A DNA stretch of 24,000 bases from Betaproteobacteria bacterium (GTDB lineage Bacteria; Pseudomonadota; Gammaproteobacteria; Burkholderiales; Casimicrobiaceae), in the NCBI GenBank assembly GCA_004293675.1, contig READ01000015.1, positions 214,865-238,864 on the forward strand, given 5' to 3'. This document shows, one piece after another, positions 137-24,000 of the stretch. The position numbers and the translations under genes were made by a program. The notes under the pieces were generated by a model. That model did no database searches. It saw only the letters and a program-made list of their open reading frames with translations, and was not told the DNA's origin. The first letter of the stretch is position 1, and the number at the start of each line of letters is the position of its first letter.

Positions 137-327
137 CTACTTCTAGATCCTTTTAGCCGTTTACGTCATAGCCAATAAAAATAAGGCGTTTAATCGCTTT
201 TTACTAGTTATCAGAAATACTATCAATTAGCATGAAACCTATATTTAACGTGGCATTATGCTGAAAAGTTGTTAAAAAGCCATCTTGGCAGCATCAAACT
301 GATCGCGCCACGTACACTTGTTCAGCC

Positions 328-1666: not shown

Positions 1667-4132
1667 CTACTTCTTAAACCCCGCCAACCCCGCAAACGCA
1701 TTAGCCATCGCCCCTTGCGGCTTCGCCTGCTCTGGCGCACGCGGCGTGAAATTCCGAGGCGCTTGTCCGCCGCGCGGTTGGTTGCGATCATTGGGGTCGC
1801 GCTTCACAACCTCGGCATCCATGCGCATGGTGAGCGCGATGCGTTTGCGAATGACATCGACCTCGACCACCTTCACTTTCACGATTTGGCCGGCTTTCAC
1901 GACCTCTTTCGGGTCTTTCACGAACTTGTTGGCCAGCTGCGATACGTGCACCAATCCATCTTGATGCGCGCCGACATCGACGAACGCACCGAACGCCGCA
2001 ACGTTGGTCACCGTGCCTTCTAAGATCATGCCCTCTACCAGGTCCTTGATGTCGTTCACGCCATCATTGAACTTCGCGACCTTAAACTCTGGCCGTGGAT
2101 CGCGGCCTGGCTTTTCAAGCTCCGAGATCACGTCTTTCACCGTGATTTCACCAAAACCCTCAGCAACGAACGCAGCGCTCGAAACGGTTTTCAACGCTGC
2201 AGGGTTGCCCAGCAACTCGGGAAGTGTTTTCTTCGCACGTTCAAGAATTTTCTCCACCAGAGCGTAGCTCTCCGGATGCACCGAGCTCGCATCGAGCGGA
2301 TTTTCACCCCCACGAATGCGCAAGAAACCCGCGCATTGCTCAAACGTTTTCGGACCGATACCGGATACTTTCTTAATCGCATCACGGCTCGTAAATGCGC
2401 CCTGCGCTTCGCGGTGCGTGACGATACTTTTCGCGTTATTCGCCGACAAGCCGGCGACGCGTGTCAATAGCGGCGCGCTCGCCAAATTCACATCCACCCC
2501 GACTGAGTTAACACAGTCTTCAACAATGGCATCGAGCTTCTTAGCAAGCAACGATTGGTTCACATCATGCTGATACTGCCCCACGCCAATCGACTTCGGA
2601 TCGATCTTTACGAGCTCCGCCAGCGGGTCTTGCAAGCGCCGCGCGATGCTCACCGCGCCACGAATACTTACGTCTAAATCGGGCAATTCTTGCGATGCGT
2701 ATTCACTCGCCGAATACACCGATGCACCAGCCTCTGACACAATCACCTTGACCATATCCGTTCGTGGTGAGCCCGTCGAACCATGAACCAGCTTAATCAA
2801 ATCCGCCGCCAACTGATCAGTTTCGCGGCTCGCCGTGCCGTTGCCAATCGCAATCAATTGCACGCCATGTTTCTCAGCCAGCTTTCGCAGCGTATTGAGC
2901 GATCCATCCCAATCCTTCCGAGGTTCGTGCGGGTACACCGTTGTGAAGTCAACAACCTTGCCGGTTGCATCGACGACCGCCACCTTCACGCCGGTGCGAA
3001 TGCCAGGATCGAGCCCCATGGTGACCTTGTTGCCGGCGGGCGCAGCGAGCATCAGATCTCGCACGTTGTCGCCAAACACCTTGATCGCGACCTCTTCCGC
3101 GCTCTCACGCAGCTTCGCGAACAGATCCCGCTCAAGTGACGGCGCGAGCTTCACTTTCCACGTCCAACCCACCACGCGCTTGAGCCAATCATCTGCTGCG
3201 CGACCTTGATGTGACCATTTCACTTGAAGCGCGACCGCGCTCTCAGCGGGCGTGAACACGCTACCCGGTGTCTGCCCCCTCCCCTTCAAGGGGAGGGCTG
3301 GGGTGGGGATGGTTTTCTCATCGATCACACCGACAACCATCCCCCTCCCGACCTCCCCCTTGAAGGGGGAGGAGATGACTTCCGGCTCTGGCTGCGCCAA
3401 CTTCACCGTCAAAATCTCAGCCAGCCAACCGCGAAACACCGCGAGCGCGCGATGCGACGGCACCCGACCAATCGGCTCGGAATAATCGAAGTAATCGAGA
3501 AACTTCTCGCCCTCTTTGTCTTTGCCTTCGACCAGTTTGCTTTCAAACAGCCCGTTCGTCCATAGCCACTCGCGCAACCTGCCCACGAGCGTCGCGTCCT
3601 CGGCCCACGACTCACTCAAGATGTCACGCGCGCCATCCAAACACGCCTGCGCATCGGTAAAGATGGGCGCGGCACCCTCGGCGGGCGGTGCCGTCAAAAC
3701 ATACTTCGCGGCTTCAACGAGCGGCGTTAAGGTCGGATCAGCGTAGAGCGCATCAGCCAGGGGCTGCAAACCCGCCTCACGGGCGATTTGCGCCTTGGTG
3801 CGGCGCTTTTGTTTGTACGGCGCGTAAATATCCTCCAGCTCTTGCTTAGACACGGCACGATCAATAGCCACAGCCAAATCATCGGTCCACTTGTTTTGCT
3901 CTTTGATCGACGAAATCACCGCTTCGCGACGATCATCCAATTCGCGCAAATATTCCACCCGCTCGGCCAAGTAGCGCAATTGCACATCATCGAGATTCTG
4001 CGTCACCTCTTTACGATAACGAGCGATAAACGGCACCGTTGCGCCACCGTCCAACAAATCAACCGCTGCTTGCGCTTGCGGAACCGTAATCGCGACATCG
4101 CGCGCTAACCGAACAATCAGTGACTCAGGCAT
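1667..4132 (-). CDS. tex: Tex transcription accessory protein (S1 RNA-binding domain protein), carrying two repeat-derived in-frame insertions
   Basis: 821-aa ORF. The N-terminus has VPFIARYRKEVT. The YqgF-like segment is GLDPGIRTGVKVAVVDATGK, followed by SEAGASVYSAS, helix-hairpin-helix segments, and a C-terminal S1 domain (GMILEGTVTNVAAFGAFVDVGAHQDGLVHVSQL). As I recall, Tex proteins are about 770-790 aa, so this one is longer than usual. Confidence 0.93.
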   Translation of the reverse strand: MPESLIVRLARDVAITVPQAQAAVDLLDGGATVPFIARYRKEVTQNLDDVQLRYLAERVEYLRELDDRREAVISSIKEQNKWTDDLAVAIDRAVSKQELEDIYAPYKQKRRTKAQIAREAGLQPLADALYADPTLTPLVEAAKYVLTAPPAEGAAPIFTDAQACLDGARDILSESWAEDATLVGRLREWLWTNGLFESKLVEGKDKEGEKFLDYFDYSEPIGRVPSHRALAVFRGWLAEILTVKLAQPEPEVISSPFKGEVGRGMVVGVIDEKTIPTPALPLKGRGQTPGSVFTPAESAVALQVKWSHQGRAADDWLKRVVGWTWKVKLAPSLERDLFAKLRESAEEVAIKVFGDNVRDLMLAAPAGNKVTMGLDPGIRTGVKVAVVDATGKVVDFTTVYPHEPRKDWDGSLNTLRKLAEKHGVQLIAIGNGTASRETDQLAADLIKLVHGSTGSPRTDMVKVIVSEAGASVYSASEYASQELPDLDVSIRGAVSIARRLQDPLAELVKIDPKSIGVGQYQHDVNQSLLAKKLDAIVEDCVNSVGVDVNLASAPLLTRVAGLSANNAKSIVTHREAQGAFTSRDAIKKVSGIGPKTFEQCAGFLRIRGGENPLDASSVHPESYALVEKILERAKKTLPELLGNPAALKTVSSAAFVAEGFGEITVKDVISELEKPGRDPRPEFKVAKFNDGVNDIKDLVEGMILEGTVTNVAAFGAFVDVGAHQDGLVHVSQLANKFVKDPKEVVKAGQIVKVKVVEVDVIRKRIALTMRMDAEVVKRDPNDRNQPRGGQAPRNFTPRAPEQAKPQGAMANAFAGLAGFKK
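2757..2789. repeat. Single family-B repeat unit embedded in-frame in tex
   Basis: tccgttcgtggtgagcccgtcgaaccatgaacc matches the units of the 4642-4796 array almost base for base. It is 33 nt and encodes VHGSTGSPRTD in the Tex frame. Confidence 0.85.
3274..3373. repeat. Inverted pair of family-A G-rich hairpin units (MITE-like, about 100 bp) embedded in-frame in tex
   Basis: The left arm is gccccctccccttcaaggggagggctggggtggggatgg (3274-3312). The right arm (3338-3373) reverse-complements to ctcctcccccttcaagggggaggtcgggagggggatgg. A 25-bp spacer separates them. Each arm holds a local hairpin, CCCC(T)CCCCttcaaGGGG(A)GGG. The segment encodes ...SSPFKGEVGRGMVVGVIDEKTIPTPALPLKGRG... in Tex. Confidence 0.88.
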
Positions 4133-4633: not shown

Positions 4634-4641
4634 AGCATCCA

Positions 4642-4796
4642 CCCGTTCGTAGTGAGCCTGTCGAACCATGAGCCGCGCAACAATCCGTTCTTGGTGAGCC
4701 CGTCGAACCATGAACCCCACAACGCCCCGTTCGTGGTGAGCTTGTCGAACCATGAAGCACCAAACCCGTTCGTGGTGAGCCTGTCGAACCATGAAC
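4642..4796. repeat. Tandem array of four family-B 32-nt hairpin units (periods 42, 42 and 39 bp)
   Basis: The units start at 4642, 4684, 4726 and 4765, with consensus cccgttcgtggtgagcctgtcgaaccatgaac. The spacers are 10, 10 and 7 nt and are C/A-rich (cgcgcaacaa, cccacaacgc, caccaaa). Each unit can fold as GTTCGTGG...CCATGAAC or as GTTCG...CGAAC. The array fills the gap between the VOC stop (4633) and the GGAG Shine-Dalgarno at 4801. Confidence 0.92.
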
Positions 4797-4813
4797 CGCT
4801 GGAGCAATAAACC

Positions 4814-5767
4814 GTGCTGACCTTTTCTGAAATCACCGCCGCCGCCGAACGCCTGCGTGGCGTCGCCCATCGCACACCCATCCTGACCAGCCGCGCCGTC
4901 AATGCGATGTTCGGCTGCGAAGTATTGATGAAAGCCGAAAACTTGCAACGCATGGGCGCATTCAAGTTTCGTGGCGGCTACAACGCGATAGCCGCGCTTT
5001 CTGCCGCTCAGCGCGCCGCGGGTGTCGTCGCATTCTCATCCGGGAATCACGCGCAAGCGGTGGCGCTGTCGGCACAGCTCTTGGGCTGCAAAGCGGTGAT
5101 CGTGATGCCGCAAGACGCGCCGAAGCTCAAGATCGACGCCACCAAAGGCTACGGTGCCGAAGTGGTGCTCTACGATCGATACACCCAAGATCGCGCAGCC
5201 ATCGCACAGCAAATCCAAACGGAGCGTGGTGGCACCCTGATCCCACCCTACGATTACTTACCTGTAATGGCGGGGCAAGGCACCTGCGGGCTTGAAATTG
5301 CGCTCGACGCGGGCCGTGTTGATTCCGTCATCATCTGCACCAGCGGCGGCGGCTTGCTCTCGGGGTGCGCCATCGCAATCAAGCAATTACTGCCGCAATG
5401 TGAAATTTTTGGCGCCGAACCCGAAGCGGGCAACGACATGCAGCAATCGCTGCGCATCGGCGAAATACAAACTATCGCGGTGCCCGATACGATTTGCGAT
5501 GGCCTGCAAACTCAAGCTGTGGGCTTCGAGCCATTCAAGGTGATCAAGCAACACGTCAAAGACATTTTGACGGCAAAAGACGAAACAGTCATCGCGATGA
5601 TGCGGCTCGTCTTTGAGCGTATGAAGATGGTCGTTGAACCGTCTGGCGCAGCAGCGCTGGCGGCACTTTACGAGAACCGCGAACGATTCCAAGGGCAGCG
5701 CGTAGCAATAACGTTCTCCGGTGGGAACATTGATTTCGCTCGCTTCGCCAAATTGTTGAATTCTTGA
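4814..5767 (+). CDS. PLP-dependent serine/threonine dehydratase family enzyme, short form without a regulatory domain (threo-3-hydroxyaspartate or serine dehydratase/racemase-like)
   Basis: 317-aa ORF. The PLP-lysine motif is KAENLQRMGAFKFRGG and the glycine loop is TSGGGLLSG. The N-terminus ITAAAERLRGVAHRTPILTS is typical of the family. GTG start with GGAG 9 nt upstream. Confidence 0.85.
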   Translation: MLTFSEITAAAERLRGVAHRTPILTSRAVNAMFGCEVLMKAENLQRMGAFKFRGGYNAIAALSAAQRAAGVVAFSSGNHAQAVALSAQLLGCKAVIVMPQDAPKLKIDATKGYGAEVVLYDRYTQDRAAIAQQIQTERGGTLIPPYDYLPVMAGQGTCGLEIALDAGRVDSVIICTSGGGLLSGCAIAIKQLLPQCEIFGAEPEAGNDMQQSLRIGEIQTIAVPDTICDGLQTQAVGFEPFKVIKQHVKDILTAKDETVIAMMRLVFERMKMVVEPSGAAALAALYENRERFQGQRVAITFSGGNIDFARFAKLLNS

Positions 5768-7983: not shown

Positions 7984-8083
7984 GCCCAATGAAATAAAGG
8001 CGATAAGCATTTTTTTGGTCTTATCGAAAACTAGCTAAAAGCTAGTAAACCCCTTATTTCGTAGGGCGTACCGTGAATATGTC
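7984..8083. repeat. Family-D AT-rich element, copy 1 (84-bp core 7984-8067 plus a conserved right flank)
   Basis: The left terminus is gcccaATGAAATAAAGGc and the right terminus is CCCCTTATTTCGTagggc, its inverted complement. From ATG (7989) to the end of the right terminus (8062) is 74 bp. The AT-rich interior holds the small hairpins CGATAAG..CTTATCG and ACTAGCTaaaAGCTAGT. The right flank gtgaatatgtc is shared with copy 2. Confidence 0.8.
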
Positions 8084-11630: not shown

Positions 11631-11672
11631 GTCCCCTCCCCTTCAAGGGGCGAGATAGGGTGGGGATGGGGT
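11631..11672. repeat. Single family-A G-rich hairpin unit in the creB-creC intercistronic gap
   Basis: gtcccctccccttcaaggggcgagatagggtggggatggggt aligns with the left arm at 3274-3312. It contains four G-tracts: GGGG-N7-GGG-N1-GGGG-N2-GGGG (11647-11671). Confidence 0.85.
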
Positions 11673-11758
11673 TCGGATCAATGCCATGTACCCAGCTCAC
11701 AACGAAGCTCACCTTCGACTGTGGCAGAGGCGTGTGTGGTGCAGAAAGAACATTCGCA

Positions 11759-12572: not shown

Positions 12573-12671
12573 GCCATATGAAATAAGGGATACGTTCTAT
12601 TTTTATATTTTGTTGAAAACATATTGCATTCGAACAAAACCCATGTTTCATAGGGCATTTGTGAATATAGC
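12573..12671. repeat. Family-D AT-rich element, copy 2 (84-bp core 12573-12656 plus a conserved right flank)
   Basis: The left terminus is gccatATGAAATAAGGGa and the right terminus is CCCATGTTTCATagggc. From ATG (12578) to the terminus end (12651) is 74 bp, identical to copies 1 and 3. The right flank gtgaatatagc matches copy 1. It lies in the divergent creB / radical-SAM promoter region. Confidence 0.8.
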
Positions 12672-12687: not shown

Positions 12688-12703
12688 CTGTGCATAATCA
12701 CAG
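12688..12703. promoter_or_regulatory. LexA (SOS) box-like operator, CTGT-N8-ACAG
   Basis: CTGTgcataatcACAG is an exact match to the invariant gammaproteobacterial CTGT-N8-ACAG positions, with an AT-rich core. It ends 1 nt before the ATG at 12705 of the radical SAM gene. Confidence 0.55.
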
Positions 12704-12704
12704 C

Positions 12705-13811
12705 ATGTCCGGCGATATTCCCTCTCAACAGCCCAACAAAAGCGTCACCCGCGGTCGCGGCGCAACGCTCAATATGGCTGGCCGATTCGAGTCACGCGAC
12801 ACCGCCTGGTTTGACGACGGCTGGGGCGAAGATGAGCTCATTGAACGCCTCGGTAAAAAACCCAAAACCGTCATTCACATCGAAACCGCGAAATCGATCA
12901 TTTCGCGAAACAACTCACCCGATATTCGTTTCGATCAATCGGTCAATCCCTATCGCGGCTGTGAACACGGCTGCATTTATTGCTACGCGCGGGCCTCACA
13001 TTCGTACTTGAATCTCTCGCCCGGCATCGACTTCGAAACGCAGCTATTCGCAAAGACTAACGCCGCGGAATTGCTGCGAAAGGAAATCAGCAAACGTGGC
13101 TACGTGGTGAGCGCTATCAATCTGGGCGCCAACACCGACCCTTATCAACCGATCGAACGAACTCATCGCATCACCCGCGAAGTGATCGAGGTGCTCGCCG
13201 AAGCCAAGCATCCACTCACCATCGTCACCAAAAACGCGCTCATCTGTCGCGACATCGATCTGCTCGCGCCGCTGGCGGCAAAAAAATTGGTGCAGGTTTA
13301 CGTGTCGATCTCGCAGCTCGATAATGAACTCACGCGAATTCTCGAACCTCGCGCCAGCAGCCCCGCCAATCGCTTGCGTGCCGTGCGTGAACTCAGCAGC
13401 GCGGGCATTCCAACCTGTGTGCTTGTCGCGCCGATCATCCCCTTCATCAACGACGAATTTCTTGAACGGGTCCTTGAAGCCGCCAAAGACCACGGCGCCA
13501 TCGCCGCGAGCTACACCGTCATTCGTCTGCCCTACGAAATCAAAGCGCTCTTTAAAGACTGGCTCGCCACGCACTTTCCTGATCGCGCCGCGCATGTAAT
13601 GAATCGAATTCGCGATATGAAACAGGGCAAAGAAAACAACAGCGACTTTGGCGAGCGCATGCGCGGTTCGGGTATTTACGCCGACCTAATTCGTCAACGT
13701 TTCCGAAAAAACTGCGTGCGGCTCGGGCTCACATCGACCAACATTCCCGCGCTCGATCTCACGCAATTTGCACCCGCAACGCCACAAACGGGCCAGATTT
13801 CGCTTTTCTAG
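12705..13811 (+). CDS. PA0069-family radical SAM protein (SplB-like, often annotated as DNA repair photolyase)
   Basis: It has the CxxxCxxC cluster motif CEHGCIYCYAR, an N-terminal RGRGATLN..GRFE, and about 368 aa. The start is either ATG at 12705 or GTG at 12690, and neither has a clear Shine-Dalgarno. Confidence 0.82.
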   Translation: MSGDIPSQQPNKSVTRGRGATLNMAGRFESRDTAWFDDGWGEDELIERLGKKPKTVIHIETAKSIISRNNSPDIRFDQSVNPYRGCEHGCIYCYARASHSYLNLSPGIDFETQLFAKTNAAELLRKEISKRGYVVSAINLGANTDPYQPIERTHRITREVIEVLAEAKHPLTIVTKNALICRDIDLLAPLAAKKLVQVYVSISQLDNELTRILEPRASSPANRLRAVRELSSAGIPTCVLVAPIIPFINDEFLERVLEAAKDHGAIAASYTVIRLPYEIKALFKDWLATHFPDRAAHVMNRIRDMKQGKENNSDFGERMRGSGIYADLIRQRFRKNCVRLGLTSTNIPALDLTQFAPATPQTGQISLF

Positions 13812-13932
13812 CACCTGAGCGTTGCGATTCAGACTCCTCCCATGGCGCGATCAGACCTTCCACTTCTACACTCGCGGCGCGCATCAAACGATGCATGTCA
13901 CTAGATGGCACCATAACAATGAGGATTTCCGC

Positions 13933-16899
13933 ATGACCCGTCCTGGATTTATCACCAATGCCCTTCGGCTCGCGCTGTTTGGCGGCGGCTTCGTACTGGC
14001 CGCGCCCGTACTCGCCGTCATGACCACCGACAGCCAAGGCAACGTCGGCTACAGCACTGCCGCCGAATGTGACGCAGCCGTTGCAGCTGGCACCGCAAAG
14101 TTCTACGAACCCTTCACCTCGCACCCGCCGCTCAAGCGCGACGGCGAAGCCAACGTCAAACAGGGCAAACTCTCTGACGTGGGCGGCGAATACAACCGCG
14201 GCGCCTGTGATCTAGGCGTCGGTCGCTCCAACGAGCGCGATGGCGTGAGCAAAGCGCTCATTGGTAAATACGTACCCTTCAGCGCGAGCCTACCGGTCAA
14301 CATCTACACCGACGCCAAGGGCGCGATTGTTCGCACCACCATGCAAAAGTGCGACAACCTGCCACGCCCCGTCGGCATCACCGCCGTCTCTGGCACCGAG
14401 TGTTTCGCCAACGTCGCCATCGGCCCACGTTTCGAAACCAAAACAGAACAGATCGTAAAAGTACCCGCAACGAAGCGCTTTGAAGTGGTGCCCGCCACCA
14501 CCAAAACCGTGACCGAGCAAGTGCTCGTGCAACCCGAATTGAAACGCCAGGTGCCCGTGCCTGCAACGCTCAAAACCGTGACCGAACAAGTCATGGTCAC
14601 CCCAGAAACCAAGCGCTTCATTCCGATTCCGGCCACGTTCAAAACGGTCACCGAGCAAGTGTTGGTTCAGCCCGAAACCAAGCGCTTCATTCCCGTTCCA
14701 GCCACGATGAAAACGGTGACTGAACAGGTATTGGTTAGCCCCGAATTCAAGCGTCAGATCCCAGTGCCCGGCACCACAAAAACCGTGACCGAAACGGTAG
14801 TCGTGCGCCCTGAATCTGTTCGCGAAGAGCCGATTCCAGCCACGTTCAAAACGGTCACTGAGACCGTGATGACCAAAGCTGAAAGCAAGCGCATCGAAGT
14901 CATTCCCGGCACATTCAAAACCGTCACCGAACAAGTCGTTGCCACCCCTGAGCGCAAAGAGCTCAAAGTCGTGCCCGCTGTGTTCGAAGACCGTCAAGAA
15001 TCCGTGCTCGACCGCCCCGCCACCACGCGTGTTGAAACCATCGCACCCACGTTCCGCGCTGTCACCGAGCAAGTGCTCGTGACCCCGGAAACCATTCGCT
15101 ATGAGCCCATCGAAATTCCAACGCGCGTTGTCTCTGAGCAAGTATTGGCCACGCCTGCCAGCTCACGCTTAGAAACCATTGCCAGCTCGGTGAAAACCGT
15201 GACTGAGCGTGTTGTTGTTCGCGAGGCCAGCAAGCGCCTTGAAACGGTGCCCGCCGTGTTCGAAACAGTGACTGAGCGCGTTCGTGTCGCTGACAAAGCG
15301 CTCGAATGGAAAAAAGGTCGCGCATGGATCAGCCAAGCACTGACCGTTCGCCCCGCCAAAGGCTTCGCCGTAGGTAGCGACGGTCGTGTTGACGGCGCCA
15401 AAGTTGACGCTGTGAGCACCGCCCCAGTCGCAACGACCACGGGCACACCCGCTAGCGCCGCCGCTGCTGCCGCCGCCGGCATCAATCTCGCTCCGGGCGC
15501 CATCATCGGCAAGGATGACGACGTGTGGTGCTTGGTTGAGATTCCTGAGCGCTTCGAAACGATTACGCGCCAAGTATTGAAAACACCAGCGAGCGTTCGT
15601 GAAGTTGAAGTTGCCGCTGAATACGCAAACGTTGAGCGCCAGGTAGCCGATCGTGCCGCTGCAACGCGCACGGTTGAAATCCCAGCCACGTACCAAACAG
15701 TGACCCGCACCGTTATTGATGTTGAGCGCCTGAAAACACTCGGCTACAAATTCGACGACAAGGGCGACATCGTGACCACACCGAACGGTGAGCGTGTTCT
15801 GCGCGCTGCATCGATCGCGGGTTGGACCGGTAGTGTTTCGGGTGGCCGCGCGGGTGCCCCTGGCGTTACTGCAACCGGTGCTGCTGGCGCGAACGCTGCC
15901 AACACCGCCGCTGCCGTAGGTCAATCCAACGCTATTTCACAGCGCAGCGCTGGTGCCGCTTCCGGCATCGAAGGCTACGTTCGTGAAGTAAAAGTGGCTG
16001 CGGTATTTAAGAACGAAACACGCCAAGTCGTCGACAAAGCTGCGAGCGTTCGCACCATTGAAGTGCCAGCCACGTTCAAAACGGTCAAGAGCCGTGTGAT
16101 GGTGAAACCCGCCACCACCGAAGAGATCGTGATACCAGCGACCTTCAAAACGGTGACACGTCAAGTGGTGGACAAACCCGCCAGCTCGCGCGAAATCGTG
16201 ATCCCGGCTGAATTCCGCACGGTCGAGCGCCGCGTGGTTGACACCCCAGCAACGACCAAAAAAATCAGCGTACCTGCTGAGACACAACAAGTGTCGCGCC
16301 AAGTGATCGACAAACCTGCGTCGTTCCGCGAAGAAACGATTCCGGCTGTGTTCAAAACAGAAACCCGTCAAATCGTTGATAAGCCTGCATCGTTCCGCGA
16401 GGAAACCATCGCAGCGGTCTACAAGACTGAATCGCGTCAAGTGATCGACAAGCCTGCATCGTTCCGCGAGGAAACGGTTCCTGCTGTGTTCAAAACAGAA
16501 ACCCGTCAGATCGTTGATAAGCCAGCGTCATTCCGCGAAGAAACCGTGCCCGCTGTCTTTAAGACCGAAGCTCGCCAGATCGTTGATCGCGCCGCAGCGA
16601 CTCGTGAAATCGACGTGCCCGCCGTGTTCGAAACTATTTCTACGCAAGTAAAAGTAGCCGACGCAACGGTTGAGCGCCGCTCGGTGCTGTGCGAATCCAA
16701 CGCTACCGCGCAAAAGATTCGTGAGATTCAAGTTGCGCTTAAAGAAGCTGGATTTGATCCCGGTCGCGTTGATGGTGTGATTCGTCCATCGATGATGCAA
16801 GCTGTGACGCGATTCCAGCAAGCCAAAAACTTGCCAATCGATGACGGTCGCGCCATCAATATCGCCACCGTTAAAGCGCTGAAAGTGTCACCTCAGTAA
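13933..16899 (+). CDS. Secreted 988-aa repeat protein: Cys-containing N-terminal domain, about 26 copies of a 23-aa repeat in three blocks, and a C-terminal peptidoglycan-binding (PG_binding_1-like) domain
   Basis: ATG at 13933 with GAGGA 7 nt upstream. The signal peptide is MTRPGFITNALRLALFGGGFVLAAPVLA. Typical repeats are PATFKTVTEQVLVQPETKRFIPV and PAVFKTETRQIVDKPASFREETV. The C-terminus is VLCESNATAQKIREIQVALKEAGFDPGRVDGVIRPSMMQAVTRFQQAKNLPIDDGRAINIATVKAL. The track ORF starts earlier, at 13822. Confidence 0.85.
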   Translation: MTRPGFITNALRLALFGGGFVLAAPVLAVMTTDSQGNVGYSTAAECDAAVAAGTAKFYEPFTSHPPLKRDGEANVKQGKLSDVGGEYNRGACDLGVGRSNERDGVSKALIGKYVPFSASLPVNIYTDAKGAIVRTTMQKCDNLPRPVGITAVSGTECFANVAIGPRFETKTEQIVKVPATKRFEVVPATTKTVTEQVLVQPELKRQVPVPATLKTVTEQVMVTPETKRFIPIPATFKTVTEQVLVQPETKRFIPVPATMKTVTEQVLVSPEFKRQIPVPGTTKTVTETVVVRPESVREEPIPATFKTVTETVMTKAESKRIEVIPGTFKTVTEQVVATPERKELKVVPAVFEDRQESVLDRPATTRVETIAPTFRAVTEQVLVTPETIRYEPIEIPTRVVSEQVLATPASSRLETIASSVKTVTERVVVREASKRLETVPAVFETVTERVRVADKALEWKKGRAWISQALTVRPAKGFAVGSDGRVDGAKVDAVSTAPVATTTGTPASAAAAAAAGINLAPGAIIGKDDDVWCLVEIPERFETITRQVLKTPASVREVEVAAEYANVERQVADRAAATRTVEIPATYQTVTRTVIDVERLKTLGYKFDDKGDIVTTPNGERVLRAASIAGWTGSVSGGRAGAPGVTATGAAGANAANTAAAVGQSNAISQRSAGAASGIEGYVREVKVAAVFKNETRQVVDKAASVRTIEVPATFKTVKSRVMVKPATTEEIVIPATFKTVTRQVVDKPASSREIVIPAEFRTVERRVVDTPATTKKISVPAETQQVSRQVIDKPASFREETIPAVFKTETRQIVDKPASFREETIAAVYKTESRQVIDKPASFREETVPAVFKTETRQIVDKPASFREETVPAVFKTEARQIVDRAAATREIDVPAVFETISTQVKVADATVERRSVLCESNATAQKIREIQVALKEAGFDPGRVDGVIRPSMMQAVTRFQQAKNLPIDDGRAINIATVKALKVSPQ
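14425..15294 (+). repeat. Intragenic repeat block 1: 13 x 69 bp (23 aa)
   Basis: Units run from PRFETKTEQIVKV... to PAVFETVTERVRVADKALEWKKG. All are in strict 23-residue register with no indels. Confidence 0.85.
15970..16660 (+). repeat. Intragenic repeat block 3: 10 x 69 bp, including four near-identical units at 16309-16584
   Basis: Units run from AAVFKNETRQVVDKAASVRTIEV to PAVFETISTQVKVADATVERRSV. A short block 2 of 3 units lies at about 15538-15750, between Ala/Gly-rich linkers. Confidence 0.85.
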
Positions 16900-16930: not shown

Positions 16931-16958
16931 GTCGTCACTAAAAGCCCGCCTCGCGCGG
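16931..16958 (+). terminator. Rho-independent terminator after the repeat-protein gene
   Basis: aaaGCCCGCctcgcGCGGGCttttttta: a GC-rich 6-bp stem (up to 9 bp with flanking A:T pairs) followed by a 7-T run, 32 nt after the stop. A second hairpin, ACGCATCagctTGATGCGT, lies just upstream. Confidence 0.85.
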
Positions 16959-17048
16959 GCTTTTTTTATGCTGGGTAGACAACAAAATGAATTTGTATAT
17001 TCCAAAATAGAAAAATAGACATCCATCGAGTGACCCAACAATGTCGTC

Positions 17049-19923: not shown

Positions 19924-20334
19924 TCACGAAGCATCAAACGGCGAAACACATGTCACGCCCAAAGGTTTTGTCAAACCTGGTGCATCTTCGGTATAGAGCC
20001 GCGTCACACCATGCTCGGCGCACGTAGCAATGATGAGCGCGTCCCAGTATTGCAGTTGGTGATCAGCCGCTAGTTTGCGCGCCTCCAAGTGGCCTTCCCA
20101 CGACGAGACCAGCGGCGGCATCATCGAAGACCAAGTCTCAAGGACATCATTGGCGAGCAATCGCGTTGCAATCTTCTTTCGCACCGTAGCGGTAAAAAAT
20201 TCACCGTAGACCTGTGCCGCAATAGGCGATCCATCGCGTATCGCTCGTTTCAAGAGTTTCGACGCTATCGTGTGTTTTTTGTAGTCGCTCGGATCAAAAG
20301 CGTAGATCAGTACGTTGGTATCGAGCGAGATCAT
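19924..20334 (-). CDS. vapC: PIN-domain toxin (VapC-like) of a type II toxin-antitoxin pair
   Basis: 136 aa. The acidic PIN residues lie in MISLDTNVLIY, GEF, YWDALI and YTED. It has a 4-nt ATGA overlap with the upstream antitoxin ORF. Confidence 0.85.
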   Translation of the reverse strand: MISLDTNVLIYAFDPSDYKKHTIASKLLKRAIRDGSPIAAQVYGEFFTATVRKKIATRLLANDVLETWSSMMPPLVSSWEGHLEARKLAADHQLQYWDALIIATCAEHGVTRLYTEDAPGLTKPLGVTCVSPFDAS

Positions 20335-20582
20335 TCGTCGTACGCGTCGGAACGCTCAAACTTCTTTCCATACGGCTTTAGCGCTCGAAATGACAACGCC
20401 TTTTTAATCAGCGCTTCGCGCTCCTCAGCAGTCATCACCGGTTTGGGTTCAGCCGACACCAACTTCACCGCGGTTTGCCCGCGGCGTTTAATCACGATTT
20501 CTTTCCCGCTCGCGGCGAGCGCCGAATAATGAGCGAAATTGTGTACCGCTTCACGAGAGGTGATGGTGAGTGTCGTGTCCAT
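20331..20582 (-). CDS. Phd/YefM-type antitoxin
   Basis: 83 aa. The N-terminus ITSREAVHNFAHYSALAASGKEIVIKRRGQTAVKLVS matches the Phd/YefM fold pattern. It sits immediately upstream of the PIN toxin and overlaps it. Confidence 0.8.
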   Translation of the reverse strand: MDTTLTITSREAVHNFAHYSALAASGKEIVIKRRGQTAVKLVSAEPKPVMTAEEREALIKKALSFRALKPYGKKFERSDAYDE

Positions 20583-20725: not shown

Positions 20726-23155
<2,430 letters not shown>

Positions 23156-23176
23156 TCACTAACTTTGTTGCTGTAG

Positions 23177-23261
23177 GCCCAATGAAACAAGGGCTACATA
23201 CGATTTATAAATTAAATTGATAATTCAATAATTACCATAAAAAGCCTTATTTCATAAGGCT
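23177..23261. repeat. Family-D AT-rich element, copy 3, occupying the dnaN-gyrB spacer
   Basis: The left terminus is gcccaATGAAACAAGGGc and the right terminus is GCCTTATTTCATaaggc. From ATG (23182) to the terminus end (23255) is 74 bp, as in copies 1 and 2. Confidence 0.8.
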
Positions 23262-23263
23262 TT
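23239..23263 (-). terminator. Rho-independent terminator after dnaN, formed by the right terminus of the family-D element
   Basis: The minus strand reads aaaGCCTTAtgaaaTAAGGCtttttat: a perfect 6-bp stem (9 bp with A:T pairs) followed by a T-run, 17 nt after the dnaN stop. Confidence 0.65.
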
Positions 23264-23279
23264 CACAGATAAAGTTCGA

Positions 23280-24000
23280 TTAAATACGCATCGGCATCAC
23301 GACGTACTTGAAGTCGGAGCGGCCGGGCACGGTAAACAGCACGCTGGCTGCAGAATCTTGTAGCGCCATCGTCACCTCAGTGGAGCTCACCGTAGCGAGC
23401 GCATCGAGCAAATAATTGATGTTGAAGCCAATTTCCATGCTGCCGCCGTCGTAGGCAATTTCGATTTCCTCTTCGGCCTCTTCTTGCTCGTTATTCGTAC
23501 AGGCAATTTTGAGTGTGCTCGGTGCAAGACCGATGCGCACTCCCCGGAAACGCTCATTCGACAAGATCGCTGCGCGCTGCAATGTCTGCAACAACAACGC
23601 CCGCTCAATCGTAATGATTTTTGTGTGTGCCGAAGGAATCACCCGGTTGTAGTCGGGGAACTTTCCGTCAATCACTTTGCTCGTCAATTCGATATTGCCA
23701 AAACTGAAGCGCACTTGATTGGAGAGGATGTCGACCTTGAGCGGCTCATCGGTATCAGCCAATAGCTTTGATAACTCCATCACCGTTTTGCGTGGCACGA
23801 TGATTTCTTGCTTTGCGAAATCGCCTTCGATGGGCATCGATGCGTAGCTCAAGCGATGGCCATCGGTCGCCACACAAATCAATTGATTTTTTTCGAGCAC
23901 AAAGAGCATGCCGTTCAAATAAAAACGGATGTCTTGTTGCGCCATCGCGAATTCGACCAAACGCAGCGTCGATTTCAATAGTTTTTGCGGCAGCGAAAAG
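23280..24000 (-). CDS. dnaN: DNA polymerase III beta sliding clamp, C-terminal two thirds; the ORF is open to the window end
   Basis: It has FAMAQQDIRFYLNGMLF, VATDGHRL and a C-terminal YVVMPMRI. The frame stays open upstream of the track's TTG at 23978 (...FSLPQKLLKSTL). Confidence 0.95.
   Translation of the reverse strand, partial: FSLPQKLLKSTLRLVEFAMAQQDIRFYLNGMLFVLEKNQLICVATDGHRLSYASMPIEGDFAKQEIIVPRKTVMELSKLLADTDEPLKVDILSNQVRFSFGNIELTSKVIDGKFPDYNRVIPSAHTKIITIERALLLQTLQRAAILSNERFRGVRIGLAPSTLKIACTNNEQEEAEEEIEIAYDGGSMEIGFNINYLLDALATVSSTEVTMALQDSAASVLFTVPGRSDFKYVVMPMRI

Follow-up and report, generated by a model that had tools for sequence, protein, structure and literature searches.

The 24-kb stretch of DNA analysed here (24,000 nucleotides, referred to as the window) contains four copies of an 84-bp non-coding palindromic repeat, which lies in intergenic spacers, keeps a strict geometry, carries arm sequences specific to each genome and, within the DNA sampled, appears confined to a Casimicrobiaceae-like clade of the Burkholderiales. 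Our preferred explanation, held with about as much doubt as confidence, is that these sites constitute an undescribed family resembling REP doublets (REPIN/BIME-1), the arms of which would be recognised by a genome-specific protein and the terminator activity of which would be incidental. The fourth copy, the symmetry over the whole length, the central motif and the clade-wide distribution go beyond the sequence-only reading of this DNA, in which three look-alike sites had been noticed.

The whole window was searched on both strands with the arm pattern GCCYWATGAAAYAAGGG, allowing up to 3 mismatches. Six matches to this 17-nt motif were obtained, each with 0–1 mismatch, and these were the six predicted termini of the three sites, whose sequences were as claimed. 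Dinucleotide shuffles yielded 0.16 ± 0.44 matches and none of 100 reached six, so that the control proposed in the sequence-only reading did not reproduce the pattern. The matches form three plus/minus inverted pairs with a start-to-start spacing of 67 bp in all three, giving 84-bp units (Table 1); the distance of 74 bp reported earlier is right by its own definition, from the A of ATGAAA to the last capitalised base. An ungapped three-way alignment of copies 1 to 3 showed a mean column identity of 75%, mostly in the termini, and the interior identity of copies 1 and 2, previously estimated at about 65%, was 50% when calculated without gaps. A degenerate fourth copy (copy 0) with the same 84-bp geometry was detected by a geometry-based scan in a divergent spacer upstream of an MFS gene, and a covariance model run with filters off returned exactly these four copies in the window.

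Table 1. Elements of the 84-bp family in the window, parts of the focal copy, and AGTCGACT octamers located on element dyads in related loci.
Feature	Position	Strand	Description
Copy 0, degenerate fourth copy	171..254	.	Centre TATCAG at 209-214; 68 bits
Copy 1	7984..8067	.	84-bp element; centre TATCGA at 8022-8027
Copy 2 (focal)	12573..12656	.	84-bp palindromic element; R1 model 86.8 bits
Copy 2 left arm	12573..12590	+	GCCATATGAAATAAGGGA; GC clamp, AT-rich loop; 1 mismatch to motif
Copy 2 central dyad motif	12611..12616	.	TGTTGA; aligns with TATCGA of copy 1 and AAGTCGAC of relatives
Copy 2 right arm	12639..12656	-	Inverted left arm; GCCCTATGAAACATGGGT on minus strand
Copy 3	23177..23260	.	Centre AATTGA at 23215-23220
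AGTCGACT octamers on dyads	L006 5294; L006 17222; L090 1135; L092 7156; L095 18939		

The gene contexts of copies 1 to 3 were checked by Pfam scans, which bore out the three kinds of junction described earlier. Copy 1 begins 9 nt past the 3' end of the arginase gene and has on its other side a convergent 174-aa ORF at the creD tail; copy 2 is flanked by two divergent genes, creB (minus strand) and a radical SAM gene of the PA0069 family (plus strand), its right end being 48 nt ahead of the radical SAM ATG at 12705; and copy 3 is located between the tandem genes dnaN and gyrB, both on the minus strand. In this region (19924-20582 and 20726-23978) dnaN directly precedes gyrB with no recF between them, and gyrB is followed immediately downstream by a gene for a PIN-domain toxin, which overlaps with its 83-aa partner (VapBC-like). 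The right-flank sequence GTGAATAT, to which the similarity of copies 1 and 2 had been extended, is indeed present beside both (at offsets of 5 and 4 nt), but it is probably not part of the element, because the orthologous copies of related species lack it.

All copies in the window align without gaps, and their terminal 17–21 nt are inverted repeats. The dyad axis falls in a short motif at offsets 38–43 in each of the four copies (the centres in Table 1), and the element is thus an 84-bp imperfect palindrome composed of conserved ends, a conserved TCGA-type centre and AT-rich filler. In GC-richer relatives the centre reads (A/T)AAGTCGAC(T). The arm consensus is AAGCCc.ATT.aAtaAGGGcT, and the clade-wide consensus of the element is AAGCC-c.ATT.aAtaA-GGGCT ... 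TTTT ... TAAGTCGAC ... AAT ... GCCC-ctaTT.AATAG-GGCTT, with the palindrome often reaching further out, to CTGAAAGCC...GGCTTTCAG.

Several known sites were considered as the source of the conserved parts and rejected. By inspection of the sequences, the arms are not half-sites of ArgR (ARG box), CRP, LexA or parS. The centre was also rejected as an IHF site, the IHF consensus WATCAANNNNTTR being absent there, as TATCGAAAACTAG, TGTTGAAAACATA, AAGTCGACT and similar centres do not fit both halves by inspection. Scans of copies 1 to 3 found no sigma-70-like promoter above shuffle expectation in these three elements, and the centre as a sigma-70 or sigma-54 promoter was rejected on the grounds that these promoter scans were no better than shuffles. 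The centre TTTATCGA resembles an H-NS nucleation motif, AATTTATCGA; this likeness of the AT-rich centres fails in the GC-richer relatives.

The host is an uncultured Casimicrobiaceae-like betaproteobacterium of the Burkholderiales, belonging to a group from wastewater and soil. A homologue 99% identical to the radical SAM protein of the window is labelled 'MAG: Betaproteobacteria bacterium', and remoter matches are to Casimicrobium or Casimicrobiaceae. The clade sample comprised 238,900 bases from about 14 relatives, with all loci taken from a single syntenic neighbourhood that lies close to ori in the genus of the window. The relatives sampled included the near-identical strain GCA_004294085.1 (loci L001, L099 and L103), whose GyrB and arginase are one or two residues off those of the window; three congeneric species (L004, L005 from GCA_013298455.1, and L007), with radical SAM proteins 80–86% identical to that of the window and with GyrB 97–98% identical in L004 and L007, where its full length was available; and a sister genus and beyond (L006 and L089–L098). 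The negative control consisted of 858,511 bases of metagenome loci containing radical SAM relatives at 50–60% identity.

The near-identical strain has the same copies in the same places, including a counterpart of copy 0 in L103. The first covariance model was built from 11 rows, that is, eight distinct copies and their near-identical L001 counterparts, and gave full-length matches of 87–89 nt in the sister genus. The second model, trained on 21 copies, found nine more copies outside its training set. In total, 31 full-length copies (87–90 nt matches) were identified in the 238,900 bases, or approximately one per 8 kb within one syntenic neighbourhood, while neither model matched anything at E ≤ 1 in the more distant radical SAM loci of the negative control. 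In GCA_004294085.1, the additional 12 kb on the flanks of the window contributed only one weak, degenerate candidate (L103 132-219).

When 24 copies were compared with long ORFs, no overlap was found. The junctions among the 24 classified copies are convergent in eight cases, tandem in nine, and divergent in four plus copy 0, the rest having no assigned type. The sites are, as had been proposed, members of a dispersed, strictly intergenic family with inverted termini which occurs at any gene orientation, and not the operator of one regulator; additional copies, a lack of which was to refute the earlier claim, do exist. The strict full-element pattern ATGAAAYAWRG-N49-55-CYWTRTTTCRTNNGGC found no match in a genome-contig collection that does not contain the window's species; the arm motifs are species-specific, and therefore sequence patterns do not transfer between species. 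A motif-free inverted-repeat scan (60–110 bp outer length, 15/18 matches) was too strict here and returned mostly other repeat families.

Comparison of orthologous spacers revealed both persistence and turnover. In L004, 84-bp units with 67-bp spacing are present at the orthologous arginase spacer (5370-5453) and creB/radical SAM spacer, a third unit occupies a site that is unoccupied in the window, and the arm motif, GCCCTATTTAATYGGGC, differs from that of the window. L007 has the creB/radical SAM copy with a third arm type, CACCnnTATACAnGGCC, and no copy in the arginase spacer. The dnaN-gyrB spacer is without the element in L004 (52 bp) and L007 (97 bp). Presence and absence thus vary between congeners with GyrB 97–98% identical. 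The occupied and empty dnaN-gyrB spacers align too poorly to define an insertion or excision joint.

The copy ahead of the radical SAM gene was found in the window's species, L004, L005 (degenerate), L007, L006, L092, L094, L097 and, weakly, L089. Its right end is exactly 48 nt from the ATG in the window's species, L004 and L007, and because this position is kept in three congeneric species and the copy is also found in the sister genus, it represents long vertical persistence rather than recent hopping. Some other sites are common to species of the sister genus, for example the spacer before a convergent 646/666-aa gene (L006 and L094). In L005 (2989-3177) the creBCD operon and the 174-aa ORF are absent, so that the radical SAM gene comes directly after arginase, and the merged spacer contains a single degenerate element at 3034-3122.

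The creB/radical SAM spacer of the window contains a perfect LexA/SOS box, CTGTgcataatcACAG, at 12688-12703, which ends 1 nt before the radical SAM ATG. An identical box is present in L004, L005 and L007; in the window's species, L004 and L007 it lies between the radical SAM copy and the ATG. This radical SAM gene of the PA0069 family ('DNA repair photolyase') is probably SOS-regulated across the clade.

The arms are uniform within genomes and different between them. Arm identity was 0.78–0.86 within a genome compared with 0.44–0.61 between genomes, orthologous sites included, whereas interior identity was 0.29–0.58, with about 31% expected for such AT-rich sequence. In the 21-copy alignment, arm-to-arm pairing was 70.8% versus 60.7% in shuffles, a value reached by none of 500 shuffles, and slid controls gave 27–47%. 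However, the left and right arms formed 11.19 of 18 Watson-Crick pairs in cis and 11.45 of 18 when taken from different copies of the same genome, with 9.0 of 18 across genomes, and permutation of right arms within genomes gave p = 0.58. A hairpin of RNA or single-stranded DNA selected in cis was rejected on this basis, since the covariation vanishes once the copies within a genome have their right arms exchanged at random. In the absence of cis-specific pairing, the covariation reflects genome-specific arm types, due to a trans determinant or to homogenisation, and not cis compensation. The constraint on the family is accordingly a genome-specific arm sequence at a fixed spacing rather than base-pairing in cis, and we infer from this pattern that the arms are read as DNA by a genome-encoded factor, or are homogenised between copies.

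The family shares several properties with known repeat systems. Like the group I REPINs of Pseudomonas fluorescens SBW25, which RAYT transposases mobilise, it consists of short conserved inverted units around a less conserved spacer; in common with REPINs it is extragenic, has a predicted long hairpin and species-specific units, and persists vertically with occasional gain and loss. REPINs and RAYT-associated REPs are recognised by more than 100 copies per genome and by a cognate single-copy RAYT (a Y1 transposase, PF01797) flanked by the repeats; in the loci of our sample to which gene calling was applied, it revealed neither a RAYT nor another transposase gene. SBW25 REPINs are extragenic and have hairpin potential, with a pair of conserved 16-mers at a distance of 71 bp and lower conservation in the spacer between them (PMC3116915), and their size of about 89 bp with 71-bp spacing compares with 84 bp and 67-bp spacing here. 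The RAYT-associated REPs given in Table 1 of PMC2817692 all start with GTAG, GTGG or a close variant such as TGTAG, TGTGG or GGTAG. Unlike REPINs, the arms of the present family have no GTAG/GTGG head, GTAG occurring by chance in copy 1 only; the loops are AT-rich instead of the stems being GC-rich; and there is a conserved palindrome on the dyad and an invariant length. A classical GTAG-headed REP doublet does exist at 1594-1663 of the window, between the convergent MFS and tex genes; it consists of AGTAGGAGCGGCTTGCCGCGAATG and an inverted copy, is 90% complementary, and has a counterpart of the same type in L006 (4186-4250). The 84-bp family is therefore one of two distinct repeat systems that this genome carries.

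The E. coli BIME-1 (RIB/RIP) elements resemble the family in having a palindromic unit, a central motif similar to a protein site and an inverted unit, and in being about 100 bp long and intergenic. BIME-1 consists of two inverted REPs around an IHF site, and E. coli BIMEs bind IHF and gyrase (PMC2817692). Here, unlike in BIME-1, the centre is a TCGA/AAGTCGAC palindrome and not an IHF consensus, and the arm sequences are unrelated. ERIC/IRU and Correia elements are likewise non-coding repeats of about 100 bp with palindromes or terminal inverted repeats (TIRs), scattered intergenically, with possible effects on termination or transcript processing. Correia elements have TA duplications and 26-bp TIRs, and ERIC is 127 bp long with a conserved interior; the present family differs from both in lacking sequence similarity to them, in having an interior that is nearly free to vary and in lacking a duplication. 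Integron attC sites, which have R''/R' core sites RYYYAAC ... GTTRRRY at their ends and are located at the 3' ends of cassette arrays, were rejected, because the ends here are (CTG)AAAGCC...GGCTTT(CAG) and the neighbours are core genes in all orientations. Rfam gave no match at gathering score and none on any copy at E ≤ 1, no plasmid in PLSDB matched the family, and our literature searches found no description of this repeat family, in agreement with the earlier statement that the element was not recognised as a described one.

As to a protein partner, a mode of spread and any host function, we infer the following under the REP-like explanation. The arms would be DNA recognition sites for a genome-encoded protein, either transposase-like or an architectural binder, whose specificity may drift between species; such drift would lead to one arm type per genome and to another at orthologous copies in sister species. 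Copies would be inherited vertically over long periods, with no more than occasional gain or loss. Upon transcription the element may fold into a long hairpin, and an arm abutting a T-run, as in copy 3 after dnaN, could act as a terminator or 3'-end stabiliser, which would be a by-product and not the reason for the family. Counted against the REP-like explanation are the lack of a transposase in gene-called loci, of a GTAG/GTGG head, and of duplications or a clean empty site, as well as the single weak candidate in the extra 12 kb and the several sister-genus copies without a significant fold.

The main rival explanation, which we regard as possible but doubtful, is that the element is a host architectural or epigenetic DNA module and not a mobile or selfish repeat. 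It would serve as a nucleoprotein platform made of two arm palindromes with a spacing of about 67 bp, of T/A tracts located some 13 bp to each side of the centre and of a central AAGTCGAC, and would be bound by a nucleoid protein, a gyrase/IHF-type factor or a methylation-sensitive protein, with a role in supercoiling, transcription or a domain boundary; an m6A methyltransferase with 8-bp specificity would target the central octamer, AGTCGACT. Each of the five AGTCGACT octamers present in the 239 kb from the clade is found no more than 0.5 bp from the dyad of an element (Table 1), the elements making up 1.1% of the clade bases sampled, and in the methylome of Casimicrobium huifangae SJ-1 (2026) AGTCGACT is a 6mA motif with 329 of 332 strand sites (99%) methylated (PMC13515534, Table 3). 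This coincidence of dyad and methylated motif may be taken as a lead toward a link with methylation. The length is also invariant (83–85 bp) though the interiors are near-random, the position of the radical SAM site is kept in most sampled species of at least two genera, some copies are located in divergent promoter spacers, where a terminator is useless, the arms are genome-specific without cis compensation, and the binding of IHF and gyrase by E. coli BIMEs (PMC2817692) offers a parallel; the unchanged length and position of the radical SAM copy would also fit a host regulatory or architectural site. However, the centres in the window's species are decayed and the window has no AGTCGACT, its own copies having lost the octamer, and therefore a methylation role cannot be general. 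Presence and absence at the dnaN-gyrB and arginase spacers argue against an indispensable role for each site, no candidate protein was identified, and the centre is not an IHF consensus. A stronger version, in which the elements are clade-wide fixed chromosomal landmarks and not a selfish repeat, appears quite unlikely: the arms would be bound by a co-evolving host protein and the dyad would contain AGTCGACT as the site of an m6A methyltransferase with 8-bp specificity, forming an epigenetically marked boundary or architectural system, the centre of which would have decayed in the AT-shifted species of the window.

An RNA-level element, namely a bidirectional intrinsic terminator, a hairpin that stabilises mRNA 3' ends or perhaps a small RNA, kept to separate transcription units, was considered unlikely. 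Copies 1 to 3 do fold as whole elements into significant long hairpins (plus-strand z of -4.1 to -5.5 and minus-strand z of -5.2 to -6.3, with -4.1 and -5.2, respectively, for the MFE of copy 2), the left outer flank tends to be rich in A and the right one in T (AAGCC...GGCTT), and 17 of the 24 classified copies are located downstream of at least one gene. Directly after dnaN, copy 3 has a right arm that, read on the minus strand, is by inspection a terminator-like hairpin, AAAGCCTTATGAAATAAGGCTTTTTAT, with an A-tract, a stem and TTTTTAT. Of all the arms only this one looks convincing, in agreement with the terminator proposed for copy 3 in the sequence-only reading. A consensus terminator scan made no call within copy 3 or around copy 1, and its only match was a weak 6-bp stem in copy 2. 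Moreover, U-tracts next to the arms are usually 2–3 nt only, orientation relative to transcription is mixed, and four or five copies, the focal copy 2 included, lie between divergent genes. The fold of copy 0 has z of -2.1 (plus) and -0.7 (minus), several sister-genus copies fold no better than shuffles (z about 0), there is no cis-specific compensatory pairing and no Rfam match, and ordinary GC-rich terminators are used elsewhere in the window, for example at 16941-16968. A classical MITE, that is, a deletion derivative of an IS which was recently mobilised in trans by the transposase of that IS via 17-bp TIRs, seems very improbable. The terminal inverted repeats of 17–21 nt, the dispersal of the copies and a dnaN-gyrB spacer that is occupied in the window's species and empty in L004 and L007 would be expected of such an element. 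Nevertheless, no exact direct repeat of at least 3 nt, and hence no target-site duplication, was found at symmetric or other plausible boundaries of the four window copies, the same check in relatives yielding trivial 3-mers only; the interiors of copies within one genome are 0.48–0.58 identical, which is unexpected after recent transposition; the radical SAM site is orthologous across genera; and no IS with these ends was found in the approximately 250 kb of sampled DNA or in PLSDB plasmids. The portable MITE-like module proposed in the sequence-only reading is for these reasons, and with no transposase called, too strong a description.

The window also contains repeats of other kinds. A G-rich palindrome of about 110 bp (CCCCTCCCCTTCAAGGGGAGGG...) is located at 3270-3379 within tex, the ORF of which (1667-4132, minus strand) is nevertheless uninterrupted; this palindrome also occurs inside tex of L007 (634-735), a half copy is found in the creC-creB spacer (11633-11682), and the palindrome in tex looks like an in-frame intragenic repeat insertion. 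Four tandem 42-nt units (CCGTTCGTGGTGAGCCTGTCGAACCATGAACC) lie at 4636-4797 between the glyoxalase and PALP genes, and a 39-nt copy of this unit, 92% identical, is found inside the tex coding region (2751-2789). The region 13822-16899 encodes a 1025-aa protein with a C-terminal PG_binding_1 domain, which is composed largely of 69-bp (23-aa) tandem repeats; its length in near-identical strains is 1025, 1007 and 993 aa, which suggests a varying number of repeats.

Transcription termination, mRNA stability, supercoiling and genome plasticity are all shaped by small palindromic repeats between genes, which to our knowledge have hardly been characterised outside enterics, pseudomonads, Neisseria and a few other groups. 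The family described here, with its unusually strict geometry, arms that change in concert in each genome and positions that are kept, provides a tractable case for studying how repeats remain uniform, the candidate routes being a partner protein, gene conversion or re-insertion. Casimicrobium is a core genus of activated sludge, and the coincidence of the element centre with a methylated 8-bp palindrome is directly testable in the cultivable C. huifangae SJ-1. In genome annotation, the spacers in question should receive the label of repeat elements instead of being mined one by one for promoters or small RNAs.
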